From Kiloniellaceae bacterium (GTDB lineage: Bacteria; Pseudomonadota; Alphaproteobacteria; Kiloniellales; J153), in NCBI GenBank assembly GCA_021776135.1, contig JAJFGL010000031.1, positions 4,703-68,702 on the forward strand: a stretch of DNA of 64,000 nucleotides, given 5' to 3'. The translations under genes and the position numbers were made by a program. The notes beneath the pieces were generated by a model. The model saw only the letters and a list, made by a program, of their open reading frames with translations, did no database searches and had not been told where the DNA came from. Numbering within the stretch: position 1 is the stretch's first letter; every line of letters begins with the position of its first letter. Positions 44,141-64,000 of this stretch are shown here, in pieces.

Positions 44141-44153
44141 GGATTGCCCCCGG

Positions 44154-45873: not shown

Positions 45874-45887
45874 TTGATCTCCCTCAA
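45874..45887. promoter_or_regulatory. FNR/FixK-type box, one mismatch (TTGATCTCCCTCAA)
   Basis: Fits TTGA-N6-TCAA. Centre lies about 77 nt upstream of the USP gene ATG (45803) and overlaps the stop of the small membrane ORF. Confidence 0.4.
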
Positions 45888-46090
45888 GCGCGGTTGCGCC
45901 GGATCGCCCCGATCATGCAAAGCAACAGCCCGGCCGCGATGAGCATGGCGTGAAAGGGGACGATCTCGAGACCGCCGCGCCACGACAGCATGGTGTTGAG
46001 CCACCCCAGGATAATCAGGATAACGCCGAAGATACGAAAGACGGCGCCCCGGCTTCTATCAGGTAACGATTCCTGTGCCTCATCCCTCAT
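45884..46090 (-). CDS. Small two-TM membrane protein (68 aa) coupled to the cytochrome c/EB_dh gene
   Basis: ATGA start/stop overlap with the upstream gene. Two hydrophobic helices (VFRIFGVILIILGWL; AMLIAAGLLLCMIGAI). Confidence 0.5.
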   Translation of the reverse strand: MRDEAQESLPDRSRGAVFRIFGVILIILGWLNTMLSWRGGLEIVPFHAMLIAAGLLLCMIGAIRRNRA

Positions 46091-47622
46091 GGTGCCCGAG
46101 TCCTCGCGCTACGTCCCCACCAAATCAGAATCGCGCCGAGCAAAAGCGTAACGGCGATGGCGGCTATGATGGGCCGGGCACTAGCCGAGGGTTTCAGCAG
46201 CAGCCAGTACCAGGTGGTCATGGCGTGATGCGATCCGGCTTCGCCGTTGGAGCCGTCCCAGGCGAAAAAGGCGATGGGAATGAAACGCCCTTCCTCGAAC
46301 TGCAAGTCCTGGTCCGCGGCCCCGGTTATCAGTGGCCGGGTCATGACCACGCGCCAGGTGCCGGCCTTGTAGCTGCTCTTGGCCGTGAGGCCGCCGGCAT
46401 CGCGCATTTGTTGCTCGGCTATTCCCATGGCGTCGATCATGGCGACGCTTTCCGCTTCCTCCGTGGTGCCGCCGGACCAGCGCCAGAGATTGACCGGCTT
46501 GGCCGCGTCGCCCATGAGGAAATAGGGTTTCTCCATGCCGGCGGGGAGCGTCACCGGGAACTGCACGGCGACGGCGTCTTCGGTCAGGTCTTCGTCGGCG
46601 ATACTCAGGGCCTTAGGGTCGCCGGGGATGCTCTTCGTCCGGTCGTCCCATTCCAGATGCAGGCCGATTTTATCGCCGTTATAAAGGGCGCGGACGCTGA
46701 GCGTGTCGTTGGCGGCGGTGAAGAACCGCGTTTCGCCGACGATCTGCGGAACCATGAAAAAGGTTGAGGGCGGCGCCGCATCCCAGGCGGGATCTTCGGG
46801 CGAGGAGGGAATCTCCCCCTCCAGGCGCGCCGCCTGAATGACCGTGTTCGCGGGCCGCACGACCTTTTCCGTCTTGGCCAGGGAGGTCACGTAGTTGGCG
46901 ACGTGCCAGCGTTCCTCGATGCTCAACTTCTTCTTGCTCTTGGGGTCGGCGAAGGAGGGCATCTGTGTGGTCGGGATGCCCGCGGTGATTCGGTTGAAGA
47001 CGTCCTTGGGGTCGTTGCTGGCGCGGAAGGTCCAGGGCTTGGTTAGGTTCCGGGGCCAGGTTCGGTCGCCGTTGTCGTTTTTCAGCTTCTTGATGGCGTC
47101 GCCCTTGCCCTCGGCGCCATGGCATTCCGAACAGCGGTCGTCGGCGTGAAAGAGCGTCTTGCCGGCGGCGATGCTTTCCGCCGAGGTCGCGACCTGGGCA
47201 CCGTAATCCACCTGAGTTTCAGGTTCGCCCTCCAATTCCGCGAAGGTTTTGATATAGGCGATGACGTCCCACATGTCCTGTTCGTTCAGCAGGCCGCTCC
47301 AGCCCGGCATGGCGGTGCCGGGCATGCCGTCGCGGACCATGCGGAGCAGGTCGCCGTCGTTGGGCAAGTCCTCGTCGAAGGGCGTGGACTTGAACTTGTA
47401 GAGGCCGAAGGTGAAATCGCGCGGCGGCGGGTTCAGGCGCTCGGCGGCCGGGCCGAGGCCGTCGCCGTCCTCGCCGTGGCACTGCAGGCAGCGCTTCGCG
47501 TAGATGGCCTCGCCATTTTCCTCGTCGCCCGGTGCGGCCATGGCCGGGCCCAGATAAAGCGCCAGAAATCCGGCGGCAAAGACCGGCGGGAGGTATTTTT
47601 TCAGCCCGCCGCCCGCCATCAT
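46087..47622 (-). CDS. Diheme cytochrome c fused to EB_dh (DMSO-reductase type II heme-b subunit-like) domain with C-terminal TM anchor (module 1)
   Basis: Signal peptide. CLQCH and CSECH. C-terminal half has the EB_dh pattern (VRALYNGDKIGLHLEWDD..., AVQFPV..., FFAWDGSNGE). Terminal helix IIAAIAVTLLLGAILIWW. Confidence 0.8.
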   Translation of the reverse strand: MMAGGGLKKYLPPVFAAGFLALYLGPAMAAPGDEENGEAIYAKRCLQCHGEDGDGLGPAAERLNPPPRDFTFGLYKFKSTPFDEDLPNDGDLLRMVRDGMPGTAMPGWSGLLNEQDMWDVIAYIKTFAELEGEPETQVDYGAQVATSAESIAAGKTLFHADDRCSECHGAEGKGDAIKKLKNDNGDRTWPRNLTKPWTFRASNDPKDVFNRITAGIPTTQMPSFADPKSKKKLSIEERWHVANYVTSLAKTEKVVRPANTVIQAARLEGEIPSSPEDPAWDAAPPSTFFMVPQIVGETRFFTAANDTLSVRALYNGDKIGLHLEWDDRTKSIPGDPKALSIADEDLTEDAVAVQFPVTLPAGMEKPYFLMGDAAKPVNLWRWSGGTTEEAESVAMIDAMGIAEQQMRDAGGLTAKSSYKAGTWRVVMTRPLITGAADQDLQFEEGRFIPIAFFAWDGSNGEAGSHHAMTTWYWLLLKPSASARPIIAAIAVTLLLGAILIWWGRSARTRAP

Positions 47623-48386
47623 TCGTTCCCCCAGGTTCGCGGCGAATGGCCCGTGTAATCATAGAGGAACAGGATCGTTTTCCAGATCTCGTCTTCCTTA
47701 AGGAAATTCTGCCAGACCGGCATGGAGGAAATCCAAGGCGCCGCCTCCTTCGGCAAGCCTGGGCCGCCGGTGGCAATGCGCCAGAACAAATAGGATTCCT
47801 GAAGCTGGGCGATGGTGCCCACGTCCTGGAAATTGAGCGGCGTCGGGTTCAGGCCGGCCGCATAGGGGCCGTTGCCGTCGAGCTTGTCGCCGTGGCAGTA
47901 CTGGCAGTTCTGGATATAGACGGCGGCGCCTTCCTCAACCAATTCGCGGAATTGCTCCGGGTCTTCCTTCTCCAGCTTCCTGAAGGGGTTTTCCAGCTTC
48001 AGGAGATTGACCCGCTTACCGTAAATCTTGGCCGTGGTCGGCGGCGCCGGGTGGATGGTGCGCAACTCCAACGGCGCTTCGAAGCTGGGCTGCATCTGCA
48101 CGTAGGTGCCGGCCCCCGCCGCCAGCGGGACGATAACGAAAACGATGTTGCGCCACACGCGCTTGCTCGGATCCTCGACCAGGGCCTTGATGGGGGCGAC
48201 CAACTCGCGCGTCCCTTCCTCGTCGTAGGTAAAGACCATGAACACCCCGGCGGTGACGAAAAACATGTACATGACCAGCAGGCTGGACGGGATCACCGCC
48301 TCGAGGATCACGTCGAAGACGACGATAAAACCGAAATAGACCCCGGCCAGGACCAGCACGGCCTGCAGCAACTTGGGAATTCTCAT
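47619..48386 (-). CDS. Membrane-anchored monoheme cytochrome c (module 1)
   Basis: Hydrophobic N-terminal helices, one CQYCH motif. C-terminal WRIATGGPGLPKEAAPWISSMPVW is shared with its module-2 paralog. Confidence 0.8.
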   Translation of the reverse strand: MRIPKLLQAVLVLAGVYFGFIVVFDVILEAVIPSSLLVMYMFFVTAGVFMVFTYDEEGTRELVAPIKALVEDPSKRVWRNIVFVIVPLAAGAGTYVQMQPSFEAPLELRTIHPAPPTTAKIYGKRVNLLKLENPFRKLEKEDPEQFRELVEEGAAVYIQNCQYCHGDKLDGNGPYAAGLNPTPLNFQDVGTIAQLQESYLFWRIATGGPGLPKEAAPWISSMPVWQNFLKEDEIWKTILFLYDYTGHSPRTWGNE

Positions 48387-48396
48387 TGCCGCCTCC

Positions 48397-49218
48397 TCAC
48401 TTCAAACCGGCCAGGTAATCCAGCAGGATTTCCAGTTCCGCGACGTACATGGCCTCGCCCATATCCTCCGGCATCATGTCTTCTTCGAAGCCCTCGGCGA
48501 TATCGGCGTTGGGGTCCAGGATCGCGCGGCGGAGGTAGTCCCGGTCGCGGCTGGCGCCGATCCGGGTCAGGTCGGGCCCGACCTCGCCGCCTTCGCCGCC
48601 GATCGCGTGACAGGCGTCGCAGGTGAAAAGGGCCATGAGTTCCTGGGGGTCGGCGATGGCTTCGCGCGCTTCGCTCTCGTCTTCTTCGTCTTCTTCGTCT
48701 TCTTGCGCGCCTATGTCCTGAGGTACCTCGACCGTGACCTCGGCGCCGCTGGAATCCTGGAGATAGGCGACAACGGCCGCGACCTCGGCCTCGGACATGC
48801 CGATACCGCCGCTGGCGACATTCGGCATGGGGCTTTCGGTATCGTTGGTGCCTTTCTTGCCGAAACCGATGACCACGAAGGCCGAAGGATCGATCAGCGA
48901 CTCGGTCAGGTATTCCTCGACAGTTGCGGCCTCGCCCTCGTAGCGGGGATCTTCCAGGCGCCCTGCCGCGACCTCGCCGATCGCCGCCAACTCGGGCGCC
49001 CGGCCCAGGGAATTATGACAAAGGGTGCAGGTGCCCTTGCCGTTGAAGAGCCTCTCGCCCAGGGCGATAAAGCCGTCCAGGGTCATGGACCCGAGGTCGA
49101 GCTTTTCTTCCTTGGGCGGCGGCGCCGGTTCGATCTGCGGTATGCCGTAATTGGAATAGCCGGCGAAAAAGCCGATGGTCAGCAGGGTAAAGACAACCAC
49201 GGTGAGGAACTGGCGCAT
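48397..49218 (-). CDS. Membrane-anchored diheme cytochrome c (module 1)
   Basis: N-terminal TM helix, CTLCH and CDACH motifs. Acidic linker QEDEEDEEDESEA. Start shares 1 nt with the bd-like gene stop. Confidence 0.8.
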   Translation of the reverse strand: MRQFLTVVVFTLLTIGFFAGYSNYGIPQIEPAPPPKEEKLDLGSMTLDGFIALGERLFNGKGTCTLCHNSLGRAPELAAIGEVAAGRLEDPRYEGEAATVEEYLTESLIDPSAFVVIGFGKKGTNDTESPMPNVASGGIGMSEAEVAAVVAYLQDSSGAEVTVEVPQDIGAQEDEEDEEDESEAREAIADPQELMALFTCDACHAIGGEGGEVGPDLTRIGASRDRDYLRRAILDPNADIAEGFEEDMMPEDMGEAMYVAELEILLDYLAGLK

Positions 49219-51011
49219 TAGTCCTTCCAGTACCCGGCCGGCAGCGTCTTATCGCTACTGACCTGGGCGATCCAGAAGACGAAAATCACCATGGCCATGA
49301 AAATGATCGCGGCCACGGAGACCACATTGGCGGCATAGCCCAGGGTCGGCGTGAAGGCGTCCGGCGAGGCGTCGCGCATGATGTCGAGAACGTGCCAATG
49401 CTGGCGGATGCCGGAGCGGATGTAGCCCATCAGCCCCATGAGCCAGGTGAAGGCGACGGCGAGCAGGAACAAGGCGTACTGGGCCCGCTCCGGTATCCGC
49501 CCCCAATGCAGCGGCCCGACCTCCTTGCCGCCCCGGTAGATAAAGGAATCCAGGGCGATGCTGCCGGCGATGACAACCAAGGTGGTCAAGACCTGCGGGA
49601 TCGAGGCCGCGACCTTGTAAACCGTGTTGGTGAAGTAGCCGTGATAGATGCCCAGGAATAGGATGTTGGCGATGCCGGCCGCATAAAGCGCCACCTGTAT
49701 GGCGTTGCCGGCCTTGACCCAGGGCACGGTGGCGACCTTGTTGGCGCGCCGGTAGAACATGAAACTCAGCGCCGTGAAAATAATCATCACGTTCACCGCC
49801 GTGTTCTTGGCCGGCATGATGCCCAGGGGCCCGAGAATCTTGTGGTGCGGCCCGCCCAGGGCCTTCAACTCCTCGTTGGTCAGCACCAGGGTATGGGGCG
49901 TGAACCAGACCAGGAAGGCGCCGACCAGGACGATGGCGATGTATTTGATGTACTTGGTGTAGCGCTTGGCGCCGTCGCTGCGCCCCATGCCGCACCAGAG
50001 GTAATAGTTGGCCGAGAGGAACAGGGTGCCGATCAGCACCGCCTGGATGATGAACAGCCAGGCGAAGATGCCGCCCATGAGGGTGATCCCCATCTGCTGG
50101 CTGTAGGCGTAAATCTCGGCCGCCAGGTAGTACCCGGCGAAGGGCAGGGGCAACAGCGCGCAAATGGCGATGAAGTTGGCGTTGTACCCCATCCAGTCGT
50201 AGTGCGCGCGTTCCCGCGGCCCCGAGGCGGTCAGGAACTTGAAGGCCGCGTAGGCGCCGACGATGGAGCCGCCATAAGCGATGTTGGCGACGAAACGATG
50301 GATGTTGATGGGGTTCCAGAGGAAATTATGGATGGCGGCCCAGGCGTCGCCGCTGAAAACCCCGGCGCCATCGACACCCGCCGGGCTCATCATGAAGGTC
50401 AGCCAGGCATTGGCCAGCAACATGATCGTCGTGCCAACGGCATTGAGCACCAGGCCCAAGGTCAGATGCACCCACTTCCTGAAACCGCCCTGCAGCCAGT
50501 GCCAGCCGTAGTAATAAATGTATAGCGCCGCGCTCTCGGCGAAGAACAGCAGCGCGTAGTAGAACATGCTCTCGCGGAAAATGGTCGAGAGATAGGAAAA
50601 CAGGTGCGGATAAAACAGGATCAAGGAGAACAACAACATCCCACCCAGAATCGCGGTTAGGGAATAGGCGGTGATGGAAACCTTGATGAACTCGTAGGCC
50701 ATGTCGTCGTAGCGCTTGTCGCGGGTGCGCATGCCGATGGCTTCGATGATGAAAACGAAAATCGGCACGGCCAGGACGAAGGCCGCGAACCAGAGGTGAA
50801 GCTGGGCGAATATCCAGACCGCGACCCGGCTGTTGACGCCGGCGATGCTCGGGTAATCGGCGGCGCTGAGCTTGGGCGCCGGGGGATAAAGCCTGGCCGC
50901 CGCCTCCCCGTGCTCGGCGGCGAGGGCGCCCAACTGCTCGACGCCGGTAAAAGTAAGCGCCGCCGCGGCAAGGGCGAGCCCGATCCCGAATTTAGGGAGA
51001 GGCCGGTTCAT
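49218..51011 (-). CDS. Cytochrome bd ubiquinol oxidase subunit-I-like polytopic membrane protein (bd-like, module 1)
   Basis: 597 aa, many TM helices. CydA-like N-terminal helix with conserved His (FAQLHLWFAAFVLAVPIF). Segments YYYGW, MMSPAGVD, AHYDWMGY, LPLPFAGYY. No CydB gene adjacent. Confidence 0.75.
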   Translation of the reverse strand: MNRPLPKFGIGLALAAAALTFTGVEQLGALAAEHGEAAARLYPPAPKLSAADYPSIAGVNSRVAVWIFAQLHLWFAAFVLAVPIFVFIIEAIGMRTRDKRYDDMAYEFIKVSITAYSLTAILGGMLLFSLILFYPHLFSYLSTIFRESMFYYALLFFAESAALYIYYYGWHWLQGGFRKWVHLTLGLVLNAVGTTIMLLANAWLTFMMSPAGVDGAGVFSGDAWAAIHNFLWNPINIHRFVANIAYGGSIVGAYAAFKFLTASGPRERAHYDWMGYNANFIAICALLPLPFAGYYLAAEIYAYSQQMGITLMGGIFAWLFIIQAVLIGTLFLSANYYLWCGMGRSDGAKRYTKYIKYIAIVLVGAFLVWFTPHTLVLTNEELKALGGPHHKILGPLGIMPAKNTAVNVMIIFTALSFMFYRRANKVATVPWVKAGNAIQVALYAAGIANILFLGIYHGYFTNTVYKVAASIPQVLTTLVVIAGSIALDSFIYRGGKEVGPLHWGRIPERAQYALFLLAVAFTWLMGLMGYIRSGIRQHWHVLDIMRDASPDAFTPTLGYAANVVSVAAIIFMAMVIFVFWIAQVSSDKTLPAGYWKD

Positions 51012-51033
51012 GTTTTTCTCAAGGCCTCATCCA

Positions 51034-51150
51034 TCACTTATGAAATATCAGGCTCAGGCCCTGCATGTTCATGACCGCCACGTCGAGCAGCAGGAAGATC
51101 GCGGCGAAGGCGATCAGGGCCGCCGCGAAGGGAACTAAATAGCCATTCAT
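51034..51150 (-). CDS. Unannotated 38-aa single-TM peptide upstream of bd-like gene 1
   Basis: Hand translation: MNGYLVPFAAALIAFAAIFLLLDVAVMNMQGLSLIFHK. GGAGAA-like RBS upstream. Ends 22 nt before the bd-like ATG. Below the ORF-track size cutoff. Confidence 0.4.
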   Translation of the reverse strand: MNGYLVPFAAALIAFAAIFLLLDVAVMNMQGLSLIFHK

Positions 51151-51174
51151 GCCCGTTCTTCTCCCCCGCGTCCC

Positions 51175-51285
51175 TTAGGCCCGCACGAACCACCAGAAGA
51201 AAATCGCCAGCAGGGCCAGCACAACCATGAACAAAGCCGGCCCGGCCCAGCCAGCGCGTTCCTCTTCACCTTTTTGTTCAGTCAT
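51175..51285 (-). CDS. Unannotated 36-aa single-TM peptide
   Basis: Hand translation: MTEQKGEEERAGWAGPALFMVVLALLAIFFWWFVRA. AGGTG 7 nt upstream. The ATG may lie upstream of the start site of the putative FNR-dependent promoter. Confidence 0.3.
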   Translation of the reverse strand: MTEQKGEEERAGWAGPALFMVVLALLAIFFWWFVRA

Positions 51286-51313
51286 ATTTCAACACCTGGG
51301 AAACCCATCCAAC

Positions 51314-51327
51314 TTGATCGGGATCAA
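51314..51327. promoter_or_regulatory. Perfect FNR/CRP-family box TTGATCGGGATCAA
   Basis: Exact match to TTGAT-N4-ATCAA, in the only sizeable gap (185 nt) inside the cytochrome cluster. Minus-strand -10-like TGAAAT sits 22 nt away; plus-strand TAAGAT sits 23 nt away. Confidence 0.55.
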
Positions 51328-51362
51328 TGGACGGAGAGATTGCCTTGGGATAAGATTTGACC

Positions 51363-51464
51363 ATGCCGTCGCCCAAAAAACGCTTCGCCGACGCCGTTAT
51401 CCTCTCCGGCATGGCCGTGAACGCCGTGGTCATCGTCTTGATCCTCTATTTCTACGTCTTCTAG
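51363..51464 (+). CDS. Possible leaderless 33-aa TM peptide on the opposite strand (speculative)
   Basis: Hand translation: MPSPKKRFADAVILSGMAVNAVVIVLILYFYVF. The ATG sits about 42 nt from the FNR-box centre, where a class II promoter would start transcription. No RBS. Confidence 0.2.
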   Translation: MPSPKKRFADAVILSGMAVNAVVIVLILYFYVF

Positions 51465-51470
51465 GCAGCC

Positions 51471-51839
51471 CTATCCCTGTTTACCCTCGCACTGGCAGAG
51501 TGTGCGCAGGTGCCTGATCAGGCCATCGACCTGCTCGGCGGTCAGGGTTTTGCCCCAGGGCGGCATCATGGGCGATTTACTGACCGAGGGGCCGCCGTCC
51601 AGGATGACATTCTTCAAATCCGCGTCGGAAAGCTTGTTCATTTCCGCCGCGTTGGTGAAGTTACGCGGGCTGACGGGGAAATCCTTGGTCACGTTGGGAC
51701 CGTCGCCCTTGCCGGTCAGGCCGTGGCACTGGGCGCAATAGAACTTGAACACCTTTTCGGTCTCCGACGCCGTGGCCGGTGCCAGGGTCAGGAGAAAAAC
51801 GAACGCCGCGAAGGTTGCGATTGTCATTAGCTTTTTCAT
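51471..51839 (-). CDS. Soluble periplasmic monoheme cytochrome c
   Basis: Signal peptide MKKLMTIATFAAFVFLLTLAPATA, one CAQCH motif and a distal Met region (SPMMPPWG). Confidence 0.8.
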   Translation of the reverse strand: MKKLMTIATFAAFVFLLTLAPATASETEKVFKFYCAQCHGLTGKGDGPNVTKDFPVSPRNFTNAAEMNKLSDADLKNVILDGGPSVSKSPMMPPWGKTLTAEQVDGLIRHLRTLCQCEGKQG

Positions 51840-51853
51840 GGTCGGTCTCCCCC

Positions 51854-52516
51854 CTATTTCTTCGGCTTGAAGCTGGCCACATGGCGGGCGACGTTGGTCA
51901 TGTCCTTGTCGCTAAGAAGACCGGTGAAAACCGGCATCATCTTCACCGGCTTGAAGACCTTGGGTTTTTGCAGGTAGGCGAGAATCCAATCCGGGTTGAG
52001 GCGCAGGCCGGCCTCGACCAGGGAGGGGCCGCTGCGTCCACCGGAGATTTTCTTCTTGCGTCCCACGTACTGGTGGCAACCGCTGCACGGCATCTTCTTG
52101 ATGAAGATCTGGCGGCCCTTGGGGTTCTTCTTGGGCTTGACCTTGCCGGCTTCCACCTCATCGGTCGTGAGGGTCATGAGAAAGTCCGTGACCGCGGCCA
52201 CATCGGCGCCGTCCAGCTTCGGATGATCGCCGGGGTTTTCTTCCGTGAGGCTGTTGAACTTCATGGGCCGGATGGGTTTGGGATCGGCCAGCCAGCCAGC
52301 CAACCAGTCCTTCTGGAATTTCGATCCGGCGTACCAGAGTTCCGGCCCCTTCTTGGCCAACTGGTCGTCGATGGTCTTTTCCCTGGCCGGCCCGTCGGTG
52401 TAATGGCAGGCGACGCACCCCTTGGCCTCGAAGACATCCCCGCCGGCGGCCGAACCCGGTGACGCCGCGGCGGCCAGGAAGGCCGCGCTCAAAACCGCTG
52501 TCAGCATGTGTTTCAT
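51854..52516 (-). CDS. Soluble periplasmic diheme cytochrome c
   Basis: Signal peptide. CVACH and CSGCH motifs. Confidence 0.8.
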   Translation of the reverse strand: MKHMLTAVLSAAFLAAAASPGSAAGGDVFEAKGCVACHYTDGPAREKTIDDQLAKKGPELWYAGSKFQKDWLAGWLADPKPIRPMKFNSLTEENPGDHPKLDGADVAAVTDFLMTLTTDEVEAGKVKPKKNPKGRQIFIKKMPCSGCHQYVGRKKKISGGRSGPSLVEAGLRLNPDWILAYLQKPKVFKPVKMMPVFTGLLSDKDMTNVARHVASFKPKK

Positions 52517-52551
52517 GACTTTCTCTCCTCCAATTTCTTTTACCGGCGGCT

Positions 52552-54207
52552 TCAGGCGTCCACCTCCGCCGGCGTTTCTTCTTTTTCCGCCTTACGCATC
52601 AGCCAAATCCCCAGGCCGCCCGCGACCAGGAAGGCCAGGACGCTGTAGACATAAACGCTGACCGGCGTCGGCGCCTCGATGAAGACGTAGTGCCAGGTGC
52701 TGAGGCCCATGATCAGGCCGTGTTCGCCGTTGGAGCCGTCCCAGGCATTGACGGACATGGGGGTGAACAGGCCTTTCGCGAACTGCACGTCGTTCTTGTC
52801 GCCGGTATTCAGCGGCCGCTTCATGACCACGCTCCAGCGGCCCTGGTCCCACTTCGCCTGGCCGGCGATTTGCTGGCCGCCTTCGGCTTGGCGCTTGATC
52901 GGCTGTTTCCAGCCGCGCGCGTTGCCTTCCTCCGTGCCCCGCTCCCCGGCCGCGTCCAGGTCCGCCTTCCAGACCCAGAGGTGAACCTGGTCGGAGGAGG
53001 AGCCACGGTAGAAGTGCGGTTTTTTGGTGCCCTGTGTCGGCTTCACCGCGAATTGAAGCGCGATGGAATCGCGGAAGGTTTCCAGGGCCCGCGGCATCAT
53101 GCCGTTGGCTTCCACGTAGGAACTGAAGGATCCCACCTTGGCGATCTCTATGGGGTCGAACTCCCGCGCCTCGTCGTGCACGATGTCCTTGAAGGGATCG
53201 TCCCAGGTCAGGCGGAAGGAGATGTCCGTGTCGTTGGACAAGGCTTGCACGGTCACCATCTCGATGCTCGGGTTTTGCCAGCGCGGGGCCGCGATCACCT
53301 GCCCGGCCAAGCGCATGTCCATGGGTTCGGCCGCGTCCCAGGCGTCGTCGTCCGGGCTTTCCGGCAGGTCCGCCGTGACCGCCTTGACCTGCAAGGCCTG
53401 GTGGCTGGTCAGTTCATGCTGCAAGGATTTGATGTAACCGGCCAGATACCAGCGGTCTTCCTCGTTCAGGGACTTGATGAAGGACGGCATGGGCGTGCCG
53501 CTGATGCCGCTGGTGAAGCGCATGTAGATGTCTTCGACCTCGCCCCCCGCCTTGATCTTCCAGGGGTGGGTGACGTTGCGGATGCGGATCGGGAAACCCC
53601 AGTCGTCCTTGCGGAACTCCTTGTTGCCGTCGCCGCGGCCGAGCTTGCCGTGGCAACTCCAGCATTTGGCCTTTTCGAACACCTCCTTGCCCTTGGCGAT
53701 GGTTTCGGGCGTGACGGGCGGGCGATTGGCGGGCAGGGCGATGACCTTGCCGGTAGCCACGGGATCGAGGTCCGGGTCGTCGAATTCCTGGGCGAAGGTC
53801 TTGATGTAGCCGATGACCGCCCAGCGTTCGTCCTCGCTCAGGCCGCTCTTGATCAGGTCGTTGTCGAAGGCTTGCATGGCGGTGCCCGGTAAGCCCCGGC
53901 TGACGGTGCGGAACAGATCCTCGTTGGTGGGCAGCTCACCGCTTTGGGTGGTGCGGAACTTGAAGGTGCCGAGGGTGAAGTCGCGGGGCCTGGGGTCCAG
54001 GTACTTGGCCGCCGGTCCCTCGCCATCGCCCAGAAGCCCGTGGCAAAAACTGCAACGCCGGAAATAAACGCCGCGGCCCTGCTCCAGATGATCGTCCGTG
54101 GCCTCGGGCATGGGCTTGCTCGGAACGTTGGCGGCCAGGGCCGGGGCCGGGGCCGACACCCAGGCGGCGGCGATAACGGCGGCGAGTAGTTTACATGGCG
54201 CGCGCAT
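52552..54207 (-). CDS. Diheme cytochrome c fused to EB_dh heme-b domain with C-terminal TM anchor (module 2)
   Basis: Start set at Met 54207 (ATGA overlap). Signal peptide. CSFCH and CWSCH. EB_dh pattern (ISFRLTWDD..., ALQFAV..., VNAWDGSNGE). Terminal helix VYSVLAFLVAGGLGIWL. Paralog of 46087-47622. Confidence 0.8.
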   Translation of the reverse strand: MRAPCKLLAAVIAAAWVSAPAPALAANVPSKPMPEATDDHLEQGRGVYFRRCSFCHGLLGDGEGPAAKYLDPRPRDFTLGTFKFRTTQSGELPTNEDLFRTVSRGLPGTAMQAFDNDLIKSGLSEDERWAVIGYIKTFAQEFDDPDLDPVATGKVIALPANRPPVTPETIAKGKEVFEKAKCWSCHGKLGRGDGNKEFRKDDWGFPIRIRNVTHPWKIKAGGEVEDIYMRFTSGISGTPMPSFIKSLNEEDRWYLAGYIKSLQHELTSHQALQVKAVTADLPESPDDDAWDAAEPMDMRLAGQVIAAPRWQNPSIEMVTVQALSNDTDISFRLTWDDPFKDIVHDEAREFDPIEIAKVGSFSSYVEANGMMPRALETFRDSIALQFAVKPTQGTKKPHFYRGSSSDQVHLWVWKADLDAAGERGTEEGNARGWKQPIKRQAEGGQQIAGQAKWDQGRWSVVMKRPLNTGDKNDVQFAKGLFTPMSVNAWDGSNGEHGLIMGLSTWHYVFIEAPTPVSVYVYSVLAFLVAGGLGIWLMRKAEKEETPAEVDA

Positions 54208-55172
54208 CAGTGGCTCTCCGGAATACGCGGGGTTTTCTGGGCCAGGTCGTACTCGGCCAGAATGATCTTCCAGCGCTCTTCCTCGGTCAGGCTGAGCTTC
54301 CATTCGGGCATGGCCGAATCCCAGGGCGTCGCTTCCGTGGGCAGGCCGGGGCCGCCATTGGTAACCCGCCAGAAGGTATAGCCCTCGACGATGGTCTCGA
54401 TGGTGCCGTTGTCGGTGAAATTGATCGGCCTGAGCTTGAAGCCGTCGGCCATGGGGCCGTCGCCGGCGACGCTGTCGCCGTGGCAGGCCCGGCAGTTCAT
54501 GGCGTAGAGGGCCCGGCCCTCGAACAGATTTTTCTCCAGCAGCGCCGCGCGCGCGGTTTCCCTATCCACCGAGCCGGATTCCAGCTGCGCCAGAAACTTC
54601 TTCACCGGCTCCACGGCGAAGAACTCCAGCACATGGTCCGGCTCCACTTCATTCATCCAGTTCTCCACGTCCTCTTGCACCTGGGGAATAAACTCGATCT
54701 CGTTGGCTTCGGCCTGCTCGATGAAGGCCGTGACCTGGGCCTCGCCCGGATTGGCGATGGGGTTTTTCTTGTCCTCGAAGCTCTTGGGGAAGTTCGACGA
54801 GGGATGCTGGATGCGCAGCGAGGAGGGCACCTCCACCTTGGGCACCACCACCTCGTAAACCTGCCAGGAGACCACTACCGGCACCGCCAAGAGAACGGCG
54901 GCGCGCGCAATCTTGCTATAGCCGCCACGCAGAAGCTTCTTGACCGGGCGGAGGAAGTCGTCGAGCCCCTCCTCGGAGAAGGTCACGAACAGGAACAGCG
55001 CCACGACCGTCAACACCATGTAGAAGAACATCAAGGTGCCGGGCACCGGCAGCGGGAAGGGCAGCGTCGTCACTTCCCGGGAAACCGCGGGGATGCCCCA
55101 CTTCACCAGGGCATAGACAACCAGCAGTATCAGAACCACCGTGAAGAAGCTGCCAAGCCGCAATTTTTTCAT
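54207..55172 (-). CDS. Membrane-anchored monoheme cytochrome c (module 2)
   Basis: N-terminal TM helices, one CRACH motif. WRVTNGGPGLPTEATPWDSAMPEW is paralogous to module 1. Confidence 0.8.
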   Translation of the reverse strand: MKKLRLGSFFTVVLILLVVYALVKWGIPAVSREVTTLPFPLPVPGTLMFFYMVLTVVALFLFVTFSEEGLDDFLRPVKKLLRGGYSKIARAAVLLAVPVVVSWQVYEVVVPKVEVPSSLRIQHPSSNFPKSFEDKKNPIANPGEAQVTAFIEQAEANEIEFIPQVQEDVENWMNEVEPDHVLEFFAVEPVKKFLAQLESGSVDRETARAALLEKNLFEGRALYAMNCRACHGDSVAGDGPMADGFKLRPINFTDNGTIETIVEGYTFWRVTNGGPGLPTEATPWDSAMPEWKLSLTEEERWKIILAEYDLAQKTPRIPESH

Positions 55173-55185
55173 GATCGCCCGCCCA

Positions 55186-56172
55186 TCACTGCGCCTCTGG
55201 TTTCGGCTTTTGCAACATCAGGTAAGACAGGATGTCCTGGTAGTCCTTGACCGTCATGGCCTCGGACAGGTCGTCGGGCATGACGCTCTTGGTGTCGTCG
55301 ATCCTGATTTCCTTGATGTCCGCCTTCTCCAGGGTGACCACGTCGCCGGTGGCCGTGGTGATATCGATCTCCCCGGCCTCGTCGCGGGTTTTCAGGCCGA
55401 TAGTCTGGCGGCCTTCCTGGTTGACGGCGACGTAAGTCTCGAAGCCCTTGGTCAGGGCTTTCGCCGGTTGCAAAATGGCTTCAGAGATGAACTTCAGCCC
55501 CTTGCCGGCGATGCCGGAAAGTTCCGGGCCGATCTCACCGCCCTCGCCGTTCAGGATGTGACATTCCGAGCAGTTGTCCTCGTAGACGATGGCGCCTTCG
55601 CCCGGATCGCCGCCGCCGGCGGCGGCCGCCGCGGAAATCTTGGCATAGAAGGCTTCCGTCAATTCGCCCGGCGCGGTGTCGATGGCTTCCATGTCCAGAT
55701 CGCCGCCCAGGGACATGAGATAGGCGGCCACCGCCTTGATCTCCGTGAGGCTCAAGGAAATCGGCGGCGCGTAGACCACGGCCATCTCGTTCTTGTAGCC
55801 CTTGACCACATAGGCGCCGGGGCTGGCCAGGCTTTCGACGAGGTAATCGACGGCGGTGAACTCGGTTCCTTCCTTTTCCGAACGCTCCTTGGCCCGTTCC
55901 TCGGCCCGCGCGCCCATGGCCAGGGGAAACTTTTCCCCGAATTGGCCGTGGTTCGGGCCGCGCACGGCGCTGCCTTGACCGCCGACGCTATGACAGGTGA
56001 AGCAACGCCCCTTGCCCCAGTAGATGGTCTCGCCGCCTTCCGGGCTGACATCGACGGCGGCGCTGGTTCTTTGTCCGCCCCCGGTAAGTTCGGTAATGGA
56101 ATATCCGATCCAGAGGTAGGTGCCCAAGACGATCAGCAGAAAAGCAAACAGGCGGGCAAGGGTCGCGGCCAT
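55186..56172 (-). CDS. Membrane-anchored diheme cytochrome c (module 2)
   Basis: N-terminal TM helix. CFTCH and CSECH motifs. Paralog of 48397-49218. Confidence 0.8.
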   Translation of the reverse strand: MAATLARLFAFLLIVLGTYLWIGYSITELTGGGQRTSAAVDVSPEGGETIYWGKGRCFTCHSVGGQGSAVRGPNHGQFGEKFPLAMGARAEERAKERSEKEGTEFTAVDYLVESLASPGAYVVKGYKNEMAVVYAPPISLSLTEIKAVAAYLMSLGGDLDMEAIDTAPGELTEAFYAKISAAAAAGGGDPGEGAIVYEDNCSECHILNGEGGEIGPELSGIAGKGLKFISEAILQPAKALTKGFETYVAVNQEGRQTIGLKTRDEAGEIDITTATGDVVTLEKADIKEIRIDDTKSVMPDDLSEAMTVKDYQDILSYLMLQKPKPEAQ

Positions 56173-56176
56173 GCCC

Positions 56177-58327
56177 TCAGTCCTCCTTCTTGCCCGTAGC
56201 GGCGCCGCCGAGCCAGAACATGAAGGCGCACCCGATCATGAACAGAAGAACGGCGGCGCCGACCTGCTGGGTCATGACGAAATTACTTGGCGTGTAGGCC
56301 CATTCCGAGGTGTCGCGCATGATCCCGAAGATGTGCCAATCGCCGCGCAGGCCGGAACGGATAAAGCCCATGAGGCCCATGTTCATGGTGATGATGAAGG
56401 TCAGCAGCAACAACGCGTACTGAGACCGCACGGTCATCTTGCCCCATTGCAGCGGGCCCAGGGACTTGGCGCGCTTGAACAGGAAGACGTCGATGACCGA
56501 AACCAGAATCAGACAGCTTATGAGTTGCAGGAATTGCGCGACCGCCACGTTGCGCAGCACCGGCGAGGCCTTCTCCATGACCACGAAGCCCCAGACGCCC
56601 AGGAACAGGGTCACGTTGAAGGCGGTGACGGCCAGATAGAGCACCTGCCCCAGCTTGCCCCGGTCCATGAGCGCCAGGACGATGGCGGCGGCGCCGGCCA
56701 GGCACTCGAAGACCAGCACATAGCCGATCATATGGATGAATTCGGCCCGGTCCGCCGGCAGGTCGAGCGCGGCCGGATCCAGGGTCAGCATGGTCACCGC
56801 GTACTGCGCCACCAGGGCGATGGCGGCGGCGCCGATGACTATGATGGTAATGCGCGCGCCCTTGCCCTGATCGCGGATCGAGACCGCGTCCATCATGTTG
56901 CCCCGGCGATACAGCAGGAAGCTGAAGAAGGTCGCCAGGATGATCAAATTCACGACCGCGTTCTTGGCCGGCATCAGGCCCAGGAACTTGAGCATGGGAT
57001 GATACTGGCTGCCGCCCATTTCACCGACCTCCAGGCTGCTCAGGGGCAGGTTATGGGGGGTCAGCCAAATGGCGAAGGAGACGATCAGCGCCAGCAGGAT
57101 GTACTTGATGAACTTGTAATACCGCTGGGCGCCGGGGATGCGGGTCATGCCGCTCCACAGGTAGTAGTTGGAGATAACGAACAGAGAGCCCACCAGCATG
57201 GCCTGGATGATGAAGGTCCAGGAAAAGTCGCCGCCCATCATGTTGTTGCCCATGACCGCGCTGGTCGAATAAACCTCGCGCCCCAGGTAATAGCCGGCGA
57301 AGGGCAGCGGGATCAGCGCCGCGATGGCGACGAAGTTGGCGATATAGCCCATCCAGTCGTAATGAGCCTTTTCCTGCGGCGTCTTGGCGGCGATGAATTT
57401 GACGGCGGCGTAGGAACCGGCGACCAGGCCGCCGAAGGCCAGATTGCCGAGCATGCGGTGAATGGCGATCGGCGTGGCCAGGACGTTTTCGAAAGCCTGC
57501 CAGACGGTGCCGACAAGAACGCCGTCCGCGTCGACGCCGGCCGGGCTCATCATGTAACCGGCCCAGGAGTTGGCCAGTTGCATGATCGCGGTGCCGAAGA
57601 CGTTGAGAGTAATGCCGATGAAGATGTGGGTCGATTTCAGATCGCGGATCATCCAGAACCCGATGGCCGTGGGCGTGATGTAAAGAAGCAGGATGAACCA
57701 GCGGGTATCGACCCGCATGTCGGGACCGATGAAGCCGAGGCCGAAGGCCAGGCCGAAGCCGGCCATGAGCACGGCGAGCGCCTTGAACAGCCATTGCAGT
57801 TTGACCGGGAATTTGCGTTCGCTCTTCAGCCAATTCCAGCCGTAATAATACATATACAGCGCGAAGGTCTCGCCGAAGAACAGCAGTGCGTACATGAACA
57901 TGACATCTTTGAAGATGCCGGCCATGTGGCCCATGAAGGTCGGGTAGAGGGTAAACAGCGCGAAGGCCAGAAGCCCGCCCAGAGCGGCGGTGGTCGCGTA
58001 GGCGATGCTCAAAAGACTGGTGAACTCATAGGCCAGTTTGTCGAACTTGGGGTCTTTGTTGTTCCAGCCGACGATCTCGATAATCACCGCGAAGAGCGGC
58101 ACGCCGAGAACGAAGGCGGCGAAGAACAAGTGCATCTGGGCGATGAACCAGATCAGGCGCCGGGAATCGATGCCCAGGAACTGGCGGTAGACGTTCTCCT
58201 CCAGCGCCAGGGCCGGGGTCGCGGCAAGGACCAGCCCGACCGCGACCAGAACCGCCAAGCCCAGGCTTGCGGTTCGGGAGATTCCCCACCCGGCGCTAAG
58301 GTTGTTCGTCGTTCGACCCTGCGTCAT
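56177..58327 (-). CDS. Cytochrome bd subunit-I-like polytopic membrane protein (bd-like, module 2; about 70-aa extra two-helix insertion)
   Basis: 716 aa. Same conserved blocks as module 1 (IAQMHLFFAAFVLGVPLF, YYYGW, MMSPAGVD, AHYDWMGY, LPLPFAGYY), plus an inserted hydrophobic segment FPVKLQWLFKAL...GFWMIRDLKS. Confidence 0.75.
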   Translation of the reverse strand: MTQGRTTNNLSAGWGISRTASLGLAVLVAVGLVLAATPALALEENVYRQFLGIDSRRLIWFIAQMHLFFAAFVLGVPLFAVIIEIVGWNNKDPKFDKLAYEFTSLLSIAYATTAALGGLLAFALFTLYPTFMGHMAGIFKDVMFMYALLFFGETFALYMYYYGWNWLKSERKFPVKLQWLFKALAVLMAGFGLAFGLGFIGPDMRVDTRWFILLLYITPTAIGFWMIRDLKSTHIFIGITLNVFGTAIMQLANSWAGYMMSPAGVDADGVLVGTVWQAFENVLATPIAIHRMLGNLAFGGLVAGSYAAVKFIAAKTPQEKAHYDWMGYIANFVAIAALIPLPFAGYYLGREVYSTSAVMGNNMMGGDFSWTFIIQAMLVGSLFVISNYYLWSGMTRIPGAQRYYKFIKYILLALIVSFAIWLTPHNLPLSSLEVGEMGGSQYHPMLKFLGLMPAKNAVVNLIILATFFSFLLYRRGNMMDAVSIRDQGKGARITIIVIGAAAIALVAQYAVTMLTLDPAALDLPADRAEFIHMIGYVLVFECLAGAAAIVLALMDRGKLGQVLYLAVTAFNVTLFLGVWGFVVMEKASPVLRNVAVAQFLQLISCLILVSVIDVFLFKRAKSLGPLQWGKMTVRSQYALLLLTFIITMNMGLMGFIRSGLRGDWHIFGIMRDTSEWAYTPSNFVMTQQVGAAVLLFMIGCAFMFWLGGAATGKKED

Positions 58328-61507: not shown

Positions 61508-64000
61508 CTACGTGATATCCCTCGGTGCGAAGGACATGGAGCGGAAAGATTTCTTGTAGGGCGACTCGCCGATCTTCTTCACCTCGGCGACACCCATCTT
61601 GTAGTTATAGTTGCCGCTGATCCAATCGACGATCCGGCCTTCCAGCGCATTCGCGGGCTGCGAGGTGTGCAGGAAGTCCATGTAGAGGATGCCCTTCTTG
61701 ATGTGGCGCGTGACCATGGCGACGCCGGTGACGGCGGCCCGGGTCAGCTCCACGTTTCCGGCCTTCATCTGGCCGCTGAAGGAATAATCGCTACCCTCCA
61801 CGCCGAGAATCGTTTCTTTCAGGCTTGGCACCCGGTCGGAAAAGACCATCAGCATGTCGCCGCTCTCGATGCCGCGCGCCTTGGCGTCTTCGGGATGGAT
61901 TTCGACGTAGTTGTCGGGCCAGCGCTGAACGATGTAAGGACGGCGCCGGTCGTCGAAACCCGACTGCCAACGCTCGTTTGTGCGCCCCGAGGTGCACCAG
62001 AGCTCGTCGCCCTTGGGTTTCATCCATTCCCAATAGTCCGAGAACAGCGACCAGGGCGATTTCTGGATGTTGCAGCGCCCGGTCTGACTATTGAAATGGG
62101 TCAGTTTCTTGTTGAACATATTAGCGCCCTGCGGCCCATCGGGATCGAGTTTCCGGGTCGTGTCGTGCAAGCGCTTGGTTCCCATCAGGGACCCGTCTTC
62201 GCGCATGAACACCGGGCCTTGGATGCCGTTGGTGCCGAACTCGCCAAGTTTTTGATGCAGGGTCTTGCCCTCGCGGTGGGCGGCGACCTTGATCATGTTG
62301 AAGTCCTTGCGGCTGCCGCGTGAGAAGCGGGCCGATTCCTCGGCGACATCGTTGGAATTCTTCCAATCGAAACCGTCGAAGCCCATGCGCTTGCCCAATT
62401 CGGCGATGATCCACCAATCGGGCTTGGCCTCGCCGGGCGGGTCGTAGAAGCGGTTGTATAGCCGTAGGCGCCTTTCGCCGTTGGCCCGCATGAAGGTGTC
62501 TTCGCCCCAGGTGGCGGCCGGGAAAACAATGTCGGCGTAGCGGTTGCCGATGGGATCGACCAAATAGATGTCCTGGTTGATGACCACCATGCCGCCGGAG
62601 TCGGCGCGCCGCTTCAGGGTATCGATGATGTCCTGCTTGTCGTAGGCCCGCACCTGATGGGGGTTGGCCACGGTCAATTCCTCGAACCGCTTGGCCAGTT
62701 GCTGCGATCCGCACATGGATTGGATCCAAGTGGTGCCGATGACATGGGCGAAGCGGGTATGCCCCGACATGGTCCAGGTATCCGTGTCGAGCGCCCGGCG
62801 CCTGCGCCCCGGCAGTTTCATGGGCGACTTGTTACGCGGATACTTGCCGCCGCGCTGTCCGCCGCGCTGATGGCCGCCGGCCCTGCCGATAACCTGACCG
62901 GGCCTGCCGCCGGCGCCGACGATAATGCCCAAGGCGCTGATCGCCTGGGTATTGCCGGTGTTGTTGGACCAGTAGAAACCCTTTTCGATCATGAGCGAGG
63001 TCTTGGGATGCTTGCCATTCCTCGGCTTGGCCATCATTTCCGCCGCCGTGTAGATTTTCTTGATGTCGATACCGGCGACCTTGGCGGCGTGCTCGGGCTT
63101 GAACTCATCCTGGGCCAGGAGCCATTTTTTCCAATCGTCGAAGCCATCGGTCTGGAACTTGCCCCAGGTCGTGCGCCATTGCCACGGCGTGTTCCGGGTG
63201 CCCTGGCCGAAGCCGGAGTTGGAGCCCCACTTGTTATTGACCCAGTTCTCGATCCACTCGGCATCCTGCCAGTTATTTTCGACGATGATCCGGGCGATGG
63301 CGTTGACCACCAAAAGGTCGGTGCCGAGGTTAACGTCGAGCCACAGCCCGCCGTTGTTTTCGGCATAGGCCACGCCAGCGGTGCGGCGCGGGGTCATCAT
63401 GATGCACTTCTGGCCGTTCTGGATGCCCTTCATGATCCACTGGGTCCAGAGAATGGTCTTGGTCTCGTAAGGATCCGTGCCGCAGATCATCAGGGTCTCG
63501 GCATTCATCCAATCCTCGTAGGCCGGGCCGAAGTTATCGAACCCGGCGTCGCGGAAGCCGGGCGTCGAGGAAACGTCGGAGGGCGTGTCGTGGAAGGTGA
63601 AGTTGGCCGTGTTGATGTGGCGCAGCGCATACTTGGTGATGGCGTAGGTGTTCTCGATGAACTGATAGGAGTAAGTCTTGACGCCGTAGGCATTGGCCCC
63701 GTGCTTGGTGCGCACGTAGTTGCCGACCTCGGCCGCCACATCGAGGGCGAAGTCCCAGGGCACCGGCTGCAGGATGCCGTAAATCCGCATCAGCGGCGCG
63801 CTCAGCCGGTCGCGGGTCGGGGTTTGCGGATTGTAGCATTTCTGCGCGATACAGCCGCCGCGCAGGCTCGAATCGCCGTCGGTGTTGACGAACTCGGTAT
63901 CCTTGTCGGGAACAATCACGACATGGTGCGGCTCGCCCTCGTGCAGCACGACATTGTGCTGGTTGGGCGCCACCCAGGGGCCCAGGACCTCGACCGGGAA
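61508..64000 (-). CDS. Arsenite-oxidase-family (AioA-like) molybdopterin oxidoreductase catalytic subunit; N-terminus (3Fe-4S region) beyond the window edge
   Basis: Reading frame stays open to position 64000. Blocks align with my recollection of AioA: VVIVPDKD...SSLRGG; FHDTPS...ICGTDPYETKT; GGHQRGG; FPAATWGE...ANGERRLRLY..FYDPPGEAKPDWWIIAE; FDWK; C-terminal YKMGVAEVKKIGESPYKKSFRSMSF. Confidence 0.85.
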   Translation of the reverse strand, partial: FPVEVLGPWVAPNQHNVVLHEGEPHHVVIVPDKDTEFVNTDGDSSLRGGCIAQKCYNPQTPTRDRLSAPLMRIYGILQPVPWDFALDVAAEVGNYVRTKHGANAYGVKTYSYQFIENTYAITKYALRHINTANFTFHDTPSDVSSTPGFRDAGFDNFGPAYEDWMNAETLMICGTDPYETKTILWTQWIMKGIQNGQKCIMMTPRRTAGVAYAENNGGLWLDVNLGTDLLVVNAIARIIVENNWQDAEWIENWVNNKWGSNSGFGQGTRNTPWQWRTTWGKFQTDGFDDWKKWLLAQDEFKPEHAAKVAGIDIKKIYTAAEMMAKPRNGKHPKTSLMIEKGFYWSNNTGNTQAISALGIIVGAGGRPGQVIGRAGGHQRGGQRGGKYPRNKSPMKLPGRRRRALDTDTWTMSGHTRFAHVIGTTWIQSMCGSQQLAKRFEELTVANPHQVRAYDKQDIIDTLKRRADSGGMVVINQDIYLVDPIGNRYADIVFPAATWGEDTFMRANGERRLRLYNRFYDPPGEAKPDWWIIAELGKRMGFDGFDWKNSNDVAEESARFSRGSRKDFNMIKVAAHREGKTLHQKLGEFGTNGIQGPVFMREDGSLMGTKRLHDTTRKLDPDGPQGANMFNKKLTHFNSQTGRCNIQKSPWSLFSDYWEWMKPKGDELWCTSGRTNERWQSGFDDRRRPYIVQRWPDNYVEIHPEDAKARGIESGDMLMVFSDRVPSLKETILGVEGSDYSFSGQMKAGNVELTRAAVTGVAMVTRHIKKGILYMDFLHTSQPANALEGRIVDWISGNYNYKMGVAEVKKIGESPYKKSFRSMSFAPRDIT

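Follow-up and report, generated by a model that had tools for sequence, protein, structure and literature searches.

Which enzyme is served by a cytochrome that carries the heme-b domain of a molybdoenzyme subunit, when the only molybdoenzyme nearby is of another type? This question is raised by a 64,000-nucleotide stretch of contig JAJFGL010000031.1 from a Kiloniellaceae bacterium (the window in what follows), whose minus strand encodes two such proteins, here termed fusions A and B. Each joins a diheme cytochrome c to an EB_dh domain, known from the gamma subunits of the type II dimethyl sulfoxide (DMSO) reductase family, and ends in a transmembrane (TM) helix; the catalytic subunit of an Aio/Idr-type molybdoenzyme is encoded at the edge of the window. 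We find that A and B are probably periplasm-facing, membrane-tethered heme subunits of two paralogous bd-like respiratory cassettes of the OR-N family. Matched by description and gene order, the subunit type is the ‘alternative NxrC’ of Nitrospira and Nitrospina, kustd1709 of Kuenenia and the ‘periplasmic cytochrome b’ of TO_1. Filing the proteins in this way removes a false lead, that of an EB_dh gamma subunit for an Aio-type enzyme.

Architecture of the two fusion proteins

Both proteins are exported by a Sec signal peptide and consist of a Kustc0457-type diheme cytochrome c unit with His/Met-type motifs, an EB_dh beta-sandwich and one C-terminal membrane helix. Pfam recovers EB_dh (PF09459, cut-off 33.3 bits) at 92.1 bits in A (E = 7e-26, aa 277-466) and at 74.1 bits in B (E = 2e-20), in both cases behind two Cytochrom_C stretches, which in A are c-heme domains of the class-I type. 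Motif and hydropathy scans find two CxxCH motifs and an N-terminal signal-like hydrophobic segment in each, and a single C-terminal hydrophobic helix at aa 485-503 of A and aa 516-534 of B. The order of diheme c, EB_dh and TM helix given in a preliminary description of the window is thereby upheld, its hidden Markov model assignment of EB_dh being significant for both proteins. The presence of the fusion in two copies likewise stands: A and B are minus-strand paralogs with the limits in Table 1, and at 38% identity over their full length they derive from an old duplication rather than a recent copying event. The EB_dh domain of B has a 26-aa insertion relative to that of A. For B, a longer 583-aa open reading frame (ORF) starting at 54303 need not be invoked, since the database protein P0271 has the 551-aa form, with the same start and sequence.

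Searches against structures support this division. The N-terminal ~220 aa match, as one unit, chain B of PDB 6H5L (E = 1e-41 for A and 1e-57 for the B profile), a chain identified as Kustc0457, the diheme cytochrome c that partners Kustc0458, the nitrite-reducing HAO of Kuenenia. In the PDB sequence search the EB_dh domain of A matches EbdC (2IVF_C, E = 1.6e-13) and the nitrite oxidoreductase (NXR) subunit KsNxrC (7B04_C), with E = 1e-16 and 6e-13, respectively, when the A profile is used, and that of B matches 7B04_C with E = 8e-15. An AlphaFold2 model of B built from 76 sequences (mean predicted local distance difference test, pLDDT, 84; predicted template modeling score, pTM, 0.82) is helical in its N-terminal half, continues with a beta-rich domain and ends in a long helix (516-543); that of A, from 11 sequences, was too poor for use (pLDDT 54).

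The fusions close two bd-like cassettes

The genes lie in a long, tightly spaced minus-strand array that extends from 41.5 to 64 kb, with gaps of 0-90 nt and several overlapping start and stop codons. A promoter and terminator scan revealed no convincing intrinsic terminators or sigma-70 promoters between the array genes, and Rfam and tRNA scans of the region were empty or uninformative. Within the array A and B each end a four-gene cassette of the order CydA-like protein, TM-anchored diheme cytochrome c, TM-anchored monoheme cytochrome c and fusion, so that the association with a bd-like protein that had been noted earlier is in each case membership of a cassette with a Cyt_bd_oxida_I homolog. 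Per cassette, the genes co-encoded at this tight spacing are a CydA homolog, a high-potential diheme c of the Kustd1711 kind, a TM-anchored monoheme c and small TM peptides. The gene order of both cassettes is identical to that listed for Kuenenia, where kustd1712 is cydA-like, 1711 diheme, 1710 monoheme and 1709 diheme. The fusions themselves correspond to the description in Mundinger et al. (2019), with a signal peptide, two CxxCH, an NxrC-like domain and one C-terminal TM helix.

The two CydA-like proteins are 43% identical, the 716-aa protein of cassette B having an extra inserted membrane segment. Their Cyt_bd_oxida_I matches cover only the N-terminal part of the 418-position profile, namely positions 2-239 in the 597-aa protein and 3-118 in the 716-aa protein. 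Alignments, including that of the 597-aa protein with CydA (9r2g_A), show that equivalents of His19, Glu99 and His186 are conserved in both. Hence the residues that bind heme in the O2-reducing half of cytochrome bd are kept and the quinol-binding half is absent. Over its full length the 328-aa diheme c of cassette B is homologous to Kustd1711 (7zs0_A, E = 4e-53, residues 3-319 against 3-313), whose gene lies in the Kuenenia nxr cluster and whose hemes have potentials of about +350 mV. The corresponding protein of cassette A is a paralog of the cassette B diheme c; it contains a short acidic (EED)n stretch (48677-48704), which recalls the strong negative charge reported for Kustd1711. For the 321-aa monoheme c of cassette B, the second domain of 6h5l_B gives a weak match.

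For comparison we scanned one genome per species, which yielded 77 loci (numbered with the prefix L), and compared related loci with the window proteins by tblastn. The 38-aa and 36-aa single-TM ORFs upstream of the bd-like gene of cassette A have matches in 45 and 40 related loci, respectively, at ~58% identity, and are probably small subunits. The 68-aa two-TM ORF next to fusion A has matches in 36 loci. All three lack a Pfam match and are kept in 36-45 related loci at ~58% identity; these small hydrophobic proteins may be CydX-analogous small subunits.

This protein type is already present in the literature and is widespread, and its architecture is not unusual. A word-indexed search recovered 2339 proteins at E<=1e-5 among 8000 candidates scored, and the best 120 of these 2339 have the same three Pfam families in ~510 aa. 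An exhaustive search of 50%-identity representatives gave 578 clusters at E<=1e-30 and 3980 at E<=1e-10. The named matches are from Alphaproteobacteria, Nitrospinota, ‘Deltaproteobacteria’, Magnetococcales, Mariprofundaceae and Halieaceae; a Nitrospinia homolog has 45% identity. The same four-gene cassette with a full-length fusion is found in Nitrospinota (L080), Mariprofundaceae (L081), a ‘deltaproteobacterial’ contig (L082) and Magnetococcales (L083), and in these four loci no molybdoenzyme occurs within 10 kb of the cassette. This indicates that the fusion is part of the bd-like cassette rather than of a molybdoenzyme. The 220-aa and 122-aa cytochromes that separate the two cassettes of the window occur beside lone cassettes too, in Nitrospinota, Mariprofundaceae and Magnetococcales.

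The fusions are not molybdoenzyme gamma subunits

The EB_dh homology could be taken to place A and B among the gamma subunits of type II enzymes. However, against the NCBIfam gamma-subunit model TIGR03477 they score 112.9 and 85.3 bits, respectively, below its cut-off of 169.85. Genes for a type II alpha subunit, with its molybdo-bis(pyranopterin guanine dinucleotide) (Mo-bisPGD) cofactor, or for a four-cluster iron-sulfur (FeS) beta subunit were found neither in the 64-kb window nor in ~40 syntenic loci. A type II molybdoenzyme elsewhere in the window was considered and rejected, the largest other ORFs being housekeeping genes. Given the scores under the cut-off, the lack of alpha and beta genes, the fusion to c-heme domains and a TM helix, and the loss of the Met/Lys heme-b ligand pair (see below), the defining features of a gamma subunit fail, and A and B are not gamma subunits of a molybdoenzyme.

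Nor is the unusual pairing with the Aio-type enzyme, as the preliminary description terms it, one of subunits: the fusion gene is part of the core of the bd-like cassette, a cassette found in other phyla with no molybdoenzyme at all, and in related loci the Aio-type enzyme is accompanied by its own Rieske protein with a twin-arginine translocation (TAT) signal and two cytochrome c peroxidases.

Candidate heme-b ligands of the EB_dh domain

In KsNxrC heme b is bound by Met155 and Lys305, as by Met108 and Lys201 in EbdC (Chicano et al.). In HMMER alignments, both Met residues fall on Met370 of A and both Lys residues on His466. A and B align without gaps in both ligand loops, with the invariant flanks KP.F..G...V.LW.W and WDGSNGE.G....TW, and profile-profile alignment reproduces the result. 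The canonical columns thus hold Met370/His466 in A and Arg401/Met500 in B, so that neither paralog retains the Met/Lys pair that had been expected of a heme-b domain of this family.

The two paralogs differ in how these columns behave among their relatives. In A orthologs (n = 119) the first column is Met in ~97% and the second His in 88%; in A-like relatives retrieved with the Nitrospinia homolog (n = 115) the first is about half His and half Met, and the second is His in 98%. Such alternation of Met and His at one column opposite a nearly constant His is the behavior of a real axial-ligand site, and heme b in A is likely bound by Met370 and His466. In B orthologs (n = 120), Arg at the first column and Met at the second are both invariant (120/120), as is His496, and His398 is kept in 118/120. 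Since 37% of the EB_dh-domain columns in B are as conserved as these His and Met residues, their invariance is weak evidence by itself. The domain of B may bind heme through Met500 and another residue, perhaps His398, or may have no heme b. The three-heme (2 c + 1 b) membrane-tethered wire of the preliminary description is accordingly plausible for A, with its Met/His pair, and uncertain for B, with Arg/Met.

Across the family (150 representatives, P0121-P0270) the residues at the two ligand columns differ widely, and we tallied the pairs in 137 diverse representatives. Met/Lys (17), His/His (11), Met/His (9-10), Met/Arg (8) and x/Met (13) are found among many others, the commonest class being x/Arg (31). 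His at the first column pairs solely with His at the second (11/11). Plausible ligands occupy both canonical columns in 43 of the 137 representatives, and one or both are lacking in the other 94. A Lys five residues before the first ligand column (Lys365 in A, Lys396 in B) is nearly universal in the fusion family. Such systematic replacement of ligands (Met/Lys, Met/His, His/His, x/Met) at the EB_dh site could serve to tune its redox potential.

A syntenic array with idr-type genes

The window is one instance of a larger conserved arrangement, in which an Aio-type enzyme is followed by the HEAT protein, the 261-aa secreted protein, cassette B, the 220-aa and 122-aa cytochromes, cassette A, the Usp/PCP_red protein, the radical SAM/PCP_red protein and sometimes a HemY-like gene. 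Its hosts are marine metagenome-assembled genomes (MAGs) of Alpha-, Beta- and Gammaproteobacteria, many of them from oxygen minimum zones (OMZs; Saanich Inlet, eastern tropical North Pacific, Arabian Sea). In the window the N-terminus of the Aio-type subunit lies beyond the end of the stretch, and of the idr set only this catalytic gene is visible there. Of the 26 related loci in which the sequence reaches far enough, 25 have an Aio-type gene no more than 6 kb upstream of cassette B, a TAT-Rieske gene is always directly upstream of it (25 loci), and CCP_MauG peroxidase genes are found further upstream in all five loci that extend far enough, with two clearly present in L025 and L052. The signature lies at L025:85-5312 and L052:12270-17731, and is seen also in L032, L034 and L036. 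Two other gene orders (L052 and L057) still have idr-type genes adjoining a bd-like cassette. In L052 (9596-12700), L057 and L021 we observed a variant in which the TM-anchored monoheme c is fused ahead of the diheme-EB_dh-TM protein, giving 756-766-aa ORFs with three CxxCH; it has His at both heme-b ligand columns, and its loci adjoin idr-type genes.

The combination of an AioA-like subunit, a Rieske protein and two cytochrome c peroxidases (idrABP1P2) separates iodate reductase from arsenite oxidase (Reyes-Umana et al.). A 2026 study reported the OMZ carriers of IdrA to be mainly SAR324 and Alphaproteobacteria, and also that idrABP1P2 from an alphaproteobacterial MAG confers iodate reduction on E. 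coli. The ortholog of the molybdoenzyme in L025 (86% identical) scores 423 bits against the arsenite-oxidase equivalog TIGR02693, whose cut-off is 359; as it also passes this threshold, iodate is a presumptive substrate. NCBIfam offered no Idr model and the PDB no Idr structure. The syntenic array that unites idr-type genes, cassette B, cassette A and heme-tailoring genes in ~25 marine proteobacterial MAGs is new and apparently unreported: the literature searched, iodate-reductase papers included, contained no link between bd-like oxidases and idr or iodate genes.

Proposed function of the cassettes and competing explanations

We propose that the fusion, the c cytochromes, the small peptides and the CydA-like protein would form one membrane complex with the fusion seated on its periplasmic face. 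The five c hemes and the EB_dh b heme would then relay electrons between high-potential carriers of the periplasm and the hemes of the CydA-like protein, the likeliest direction, after the literature, being from cytochrome c to O2. Because B-type cassettes are seen only together with A-type cassettes, the two could be the halves of a CydAA’ heterodimer. Several observations weigh against A and B as heme subunits of an oxygen-reducing cassette. Their gamma-subunit scores lie under the NCBIfam cut-off, and the Met/Lys pair is gone; Arg stands at the canonical Met position in every B ortholog; with ligands at both positions in fewer than half of the representatives, heme b binding may not be universal in the family. 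The replacement of the lost Met ligand by His398 in B was considered, but the association across the 137 representatives was not significant (Fisher p = 0.09). Finally, O2 reduction by OR-N enzymes is a hypothesis of the literature, no member having been biochemically characterized.

Three other explanations were set against this one. That EB_dh has lost its heme, at least in B, and acts as a docking or structural domain, leaving B as a two-heme cytochrome c anchor, is a minority possibility of some substance. It accords with the invariant Arg, with the many representatives that lack a plausible ligand at one or more canonical positions (x/Arg being the commonest class), and with the ligand loops being among the less confident parts of the B model. 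The near-complete retention of Met500, His398 and His496 speaks for a heme, subject to the background conservation given above, as does the position of Met500 exactly on the Lys column of EbdC and NxrC. A His/Met heme b in a related beta-sandwich is found in the cytochrome domain of cellobiose dehydrogenase. Somewhat less likely is that A and B are the dedicated electron wire of the adjoining Aio/Idr-type molybdoenzyme, passing membrane electrons by way of their c and b hemes to the Rieske protein for iodate reduction, or taking them from the molybdoenzyme if it is an oxidase. The near-constant position of the Aio-type gene upstream of cassette B, at molybdoenzyme identities down to 56%, would fit such a wire, as would the maintenance of idr-type genes beside bd-like cassettes in three gene orders (that of most loci, L052 and L057) and the finding of B-type cassettes only in idr-linked arrays. 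However, the cassette occurs without a molybdoenzyme in four other lineages and is tied to other lithotrophies in the literature; the molybdoenzyme has a Rieske subunit of its own in related loci; models of characterized iodate reducers invoke bc1 and soluble cytochrome c, and the surroundings of the idr cluster in these organisms are poorly conserved; and synteny is no proof of physical contact. Very improbable, by comparison, is that A and B anchor, as gamma subunits, some enzyme of the type II DMSO-reductase family, for instance a periplasmic NXR, whose genes lie in another part of the genome. The homology to EbdC and KsNxrC would permit it, and alt_NxrC was once proposed in the literature as the NXR anchor of nitrite oxidizers, but the TIGR03477 scores, the loss of the Met/Lys pair, the lack of a type II enzyme in the window and the syntenic loci, and the presence of the cassette in Fe- and Mn-oxidizer lineages all argue to the contrary.

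The linkage of the cassettes to idr may have one of three meanings: two high-potential acceptors may be used under shared regulation where the OMZ has its edge; O2 or peroxide-type by-products of iodate reduction, whose Yamazaki model invokes O2, may be removed; or the cassettes may be a dedicated membrane electron gate for IdrAB. We tentatively suggest, as an idea with rather less than even prospects, that tandem OR-N1/N2-type cassettes, with c2-b subunits whose heme b is differently ligated, and IdrP1P2BA constitute one respiratory unit in low-oxygen marine Proteobacteria, the cassettes acting during iodate respiration either as a membrane electron gate that feeds IdrAB or as a sink for trace O2 and for O2 and peroxide-type by-products. 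This would provide the first physiological context for OR-N enzymes outside nitrite, Mn and Fe oxidizers, and marine iodate reduction would gain a membrane component that is missing from it. OR-N bd-like complexes are the assumed main oxidases of Nitrospira, Nitrospina and Manganitrophus and have never been characterized; the idr linkage, the AhbD/NirJ-like and HemY-like genes, and the ligand variation are handles on their function and on the route that electrons take in marine iodate reduction.

Other genes of the array

Between the molybdoenzyme and cassette B lie two further genes. The 261-aa secreted protein combines a C-x2-H-x2-M motif, with amicyanin-like spacing and kept in 42/42 homolog matches, with a CarboxypepD_reg domain, and may be the ‘cupredoxin-like’ partner noted in nxr clusters; a PDB sequence search with it returned nothing useful. 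In an Arenicellales locus (L061:7233-7946) a homolog occurs with a stand-alone Kustc0457-like diheme c, adjoining genes for a COX1/FixO heme-copper oxidase. The HEAT-repeat gene contains a GCCTCA-type tandem repeat (59980-60064) encoding an (EA/ETEA)n linker. Downstream of cassette A, the HemY-like and radical SAM-PCP_red genes have counterparts, one or both, that adjoin single cassettes in Mariprofundaceae (L081:2963-4420), the ‘deltaproteobacterial’ contig (L082:11646-14317) and Magnetococcales (L083:11578-13020), which suggests that a heme-tailoring step is tied to the bd-like enzyme rather than to idr.

Table 1. Features of the minus-strand array (positions in the window)
Feature	Coordinates	Strand	Length	Basis and remarks
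HemY-like flavoprotein	41478-42959	minus		Pfam; NCBIfam
AhbD/NirJ-like radical SAM-SPASM protein with C-terminal PCP_red	42863-44257	minus		Pfam; NCBIfam
Usp x2 + PCP_red x2 protein	44154-45803	minus		Pfam
Two-TM ORF	45884..46090	minus	68 aa	Overlaps stop of fusion A by 4 nt; gene-called in L001, L002
Fusion A	46087..47619	minus	510 aa	Annotated start 47619; 511 aa from alternative start 47622
Fusion A, CLQCH	47476-47490	minus		
Fusion A, CSECH	47119-47133	minus		
Fusion A, EB_dh	46225-46794	minus		
Fusion A, C-terminal TM helix	46114-46170	minus		
Fusion A, candidate heme-b ligand Met370	46513-46515	minus		Ligand-column alignment
Fusion A, candidate heme-b ligand His466	46225-46227	minus		Ligand-column alignment
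Cassette A monoheme cytochrome c, N-terminal TM helix	47619..48386	minus	255 aa	Pfam Cytochrome_CBB3/Cytochrom_C; 1 CxxCH, 1 TM; syntenic in related loci
Cassette A diheme cytochrome c, N-terminal TM helix	48397..49218	minus	273 aa	Pfam; 2 CxxCH, 1 TM; synteny
Cassette A CydA-like bd-like (OR-N type) membrane protein	49218..51011	minus	597 aa	Pfam Cyt_bd_oxida_I; ~12 hydrophobic segments
Small single-TM ORF	51034-51150	minus	38 aa	ORF call; upstream of bd-like A
Small single-TM ORF	51175-51285	minus	36 aa	ORF call; upstream of bd-like A
Accessory monoheme cytochrome c	51471-51839	minus	122 aa	Pfam
Accessory diheme cytochrome c with FixO-like stretch	51854-52516	minus	220 aa	Pfam
Fusion B	52552..54207	minus	551 aa	
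Fusion B, CSFCH	54040-54054	minus		
Fusion B, CWSCH	53650-53664	minus		
Fusion B, EB_dh	52717-53349	minus		
Fusion B, C-terminal TM helix	52606-52662	minus		
Fusion B, Arg401	53005-53007	minus		Canonical Met position
Fusion B, Met500	52708-52710	minus		Canonical Lys position
Cassette B monoheme cytochrome c, N-terminal TM segments	54207..55172	minus	321 aa	Pfam; hydropathy
Cassette B diheme cytochrome c	55186..56172	minus	328 aa	Full-length Kustd1711 homolog
Cassette B CydA-like bd-like (OR-N type) membrane protein	56177..58327	minus	716 aa	Pfam; BLASTP; hydropathy
Secreted protein, C-x2-H-x2-M motif and CarboxypepD_reg domain	58345-59130	minus	261 aa	Pfam; synteny
HEAT-repeat protein	59146-61419	minus	757 aa	Pfam; synteny
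Aio/Idr-type molybdopterin catalytic subunit	61508..64000	minus		Open to base 64000; Pfam Molybdopterin, Molydop_binding, partial Rieske_3

Comparison with known systems

With EbdC (2IVF_C) and KsNxrC (7B04_C) the fusions share the EB_dh domain, and the motifs around both ligand loops align without gaps. Those proteins, however, are soluble and single-domain, bind heme b by Met/Lys and dock on an FeS beta subunit, whereas A and B have two extra c-heme domains and a TM helix and lack alpha and beta partner genes. Their whole N-terminal diheme unit is homologous to Kustc0457 (6H5L_B), which differs in being a stand-alone soluble protein on an octaheme enzyme. Like the idrABP1P2 clusters of Pseudomonas sp. 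SCT, Denitromonas IR-12 and OMZ MAGs, the syntenic loci encode an AioA-like subunit with a 3Fe-4S domain, a TAT-Rieske protein and two peroxidases; they differ in the order P-P-B-A, followed by the HEAT and copper-motif genes and two bd-like cassettes.

The closest parallels are with the bd-like cassettes of chemolithotrophs. Kuenenia, Nitrospira and Nitrospina share a conserved set made up of an alternative NxrC, mono- and diheme cytochromes c, a 14-TM bd-like oxidase that lacks residues for quinol binding, and cupredoxin-like proteins (Lücker et al., 2013). In N. moscoviensis alt_nxrC_2 is listed as ‘1 SP, 1 TMH, diheme cyt. c’ and clusters with bd-like_3 (Mundinger et al., 2019), and TO_1 of Ca. 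Manganitrophus, in which a periplasmic cytochrome b and two cytochromes c accompany a bd-like oxidase, is expressed at the 98th percentile (Yu et al.). NITMOv2_3640, the kustd1709-1712 cluster and TO_1 are likened to the present proteins by description and gene order, with a signal peptide, two c-hemes, an NxrC-like EB_dh domain and a C-terminal TM helix. Indirect support comes from the Nitrospinia protein, which at 45% identity is the closest relative compared by sequence, and from the homology of the adjoining diheme c to Kustd1711. The CydA homologs were named OR-N1 and OR-N2, which can share one operon and have up to 40% similarity (Murali et al., 2021); later genome papers treat them as a putative cytochrome c-oxidizing CydAA’ oxygen reductase that has never been characterized. 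The pair described here resembles them in keeping the N-terminal heme-ligand helices, in lacking the quinol-binding half and in comprising two proteins, here 43% identical, in one array. The cassettes of Nitrospira, Kuenenia and Manganitrophus likewise combine a CydA homolog of 14 TM helices with two c cytochromes bound to the membrane, their gene order being the same and the bd-like gene duplicated nearby. In contrast to these, the present host is a marine alphaproteobacterium, the cassette is duplicated in tandem as a whole rather than in its CydA gene alone, and the adjoining genes are of the idr type instead of nxr.

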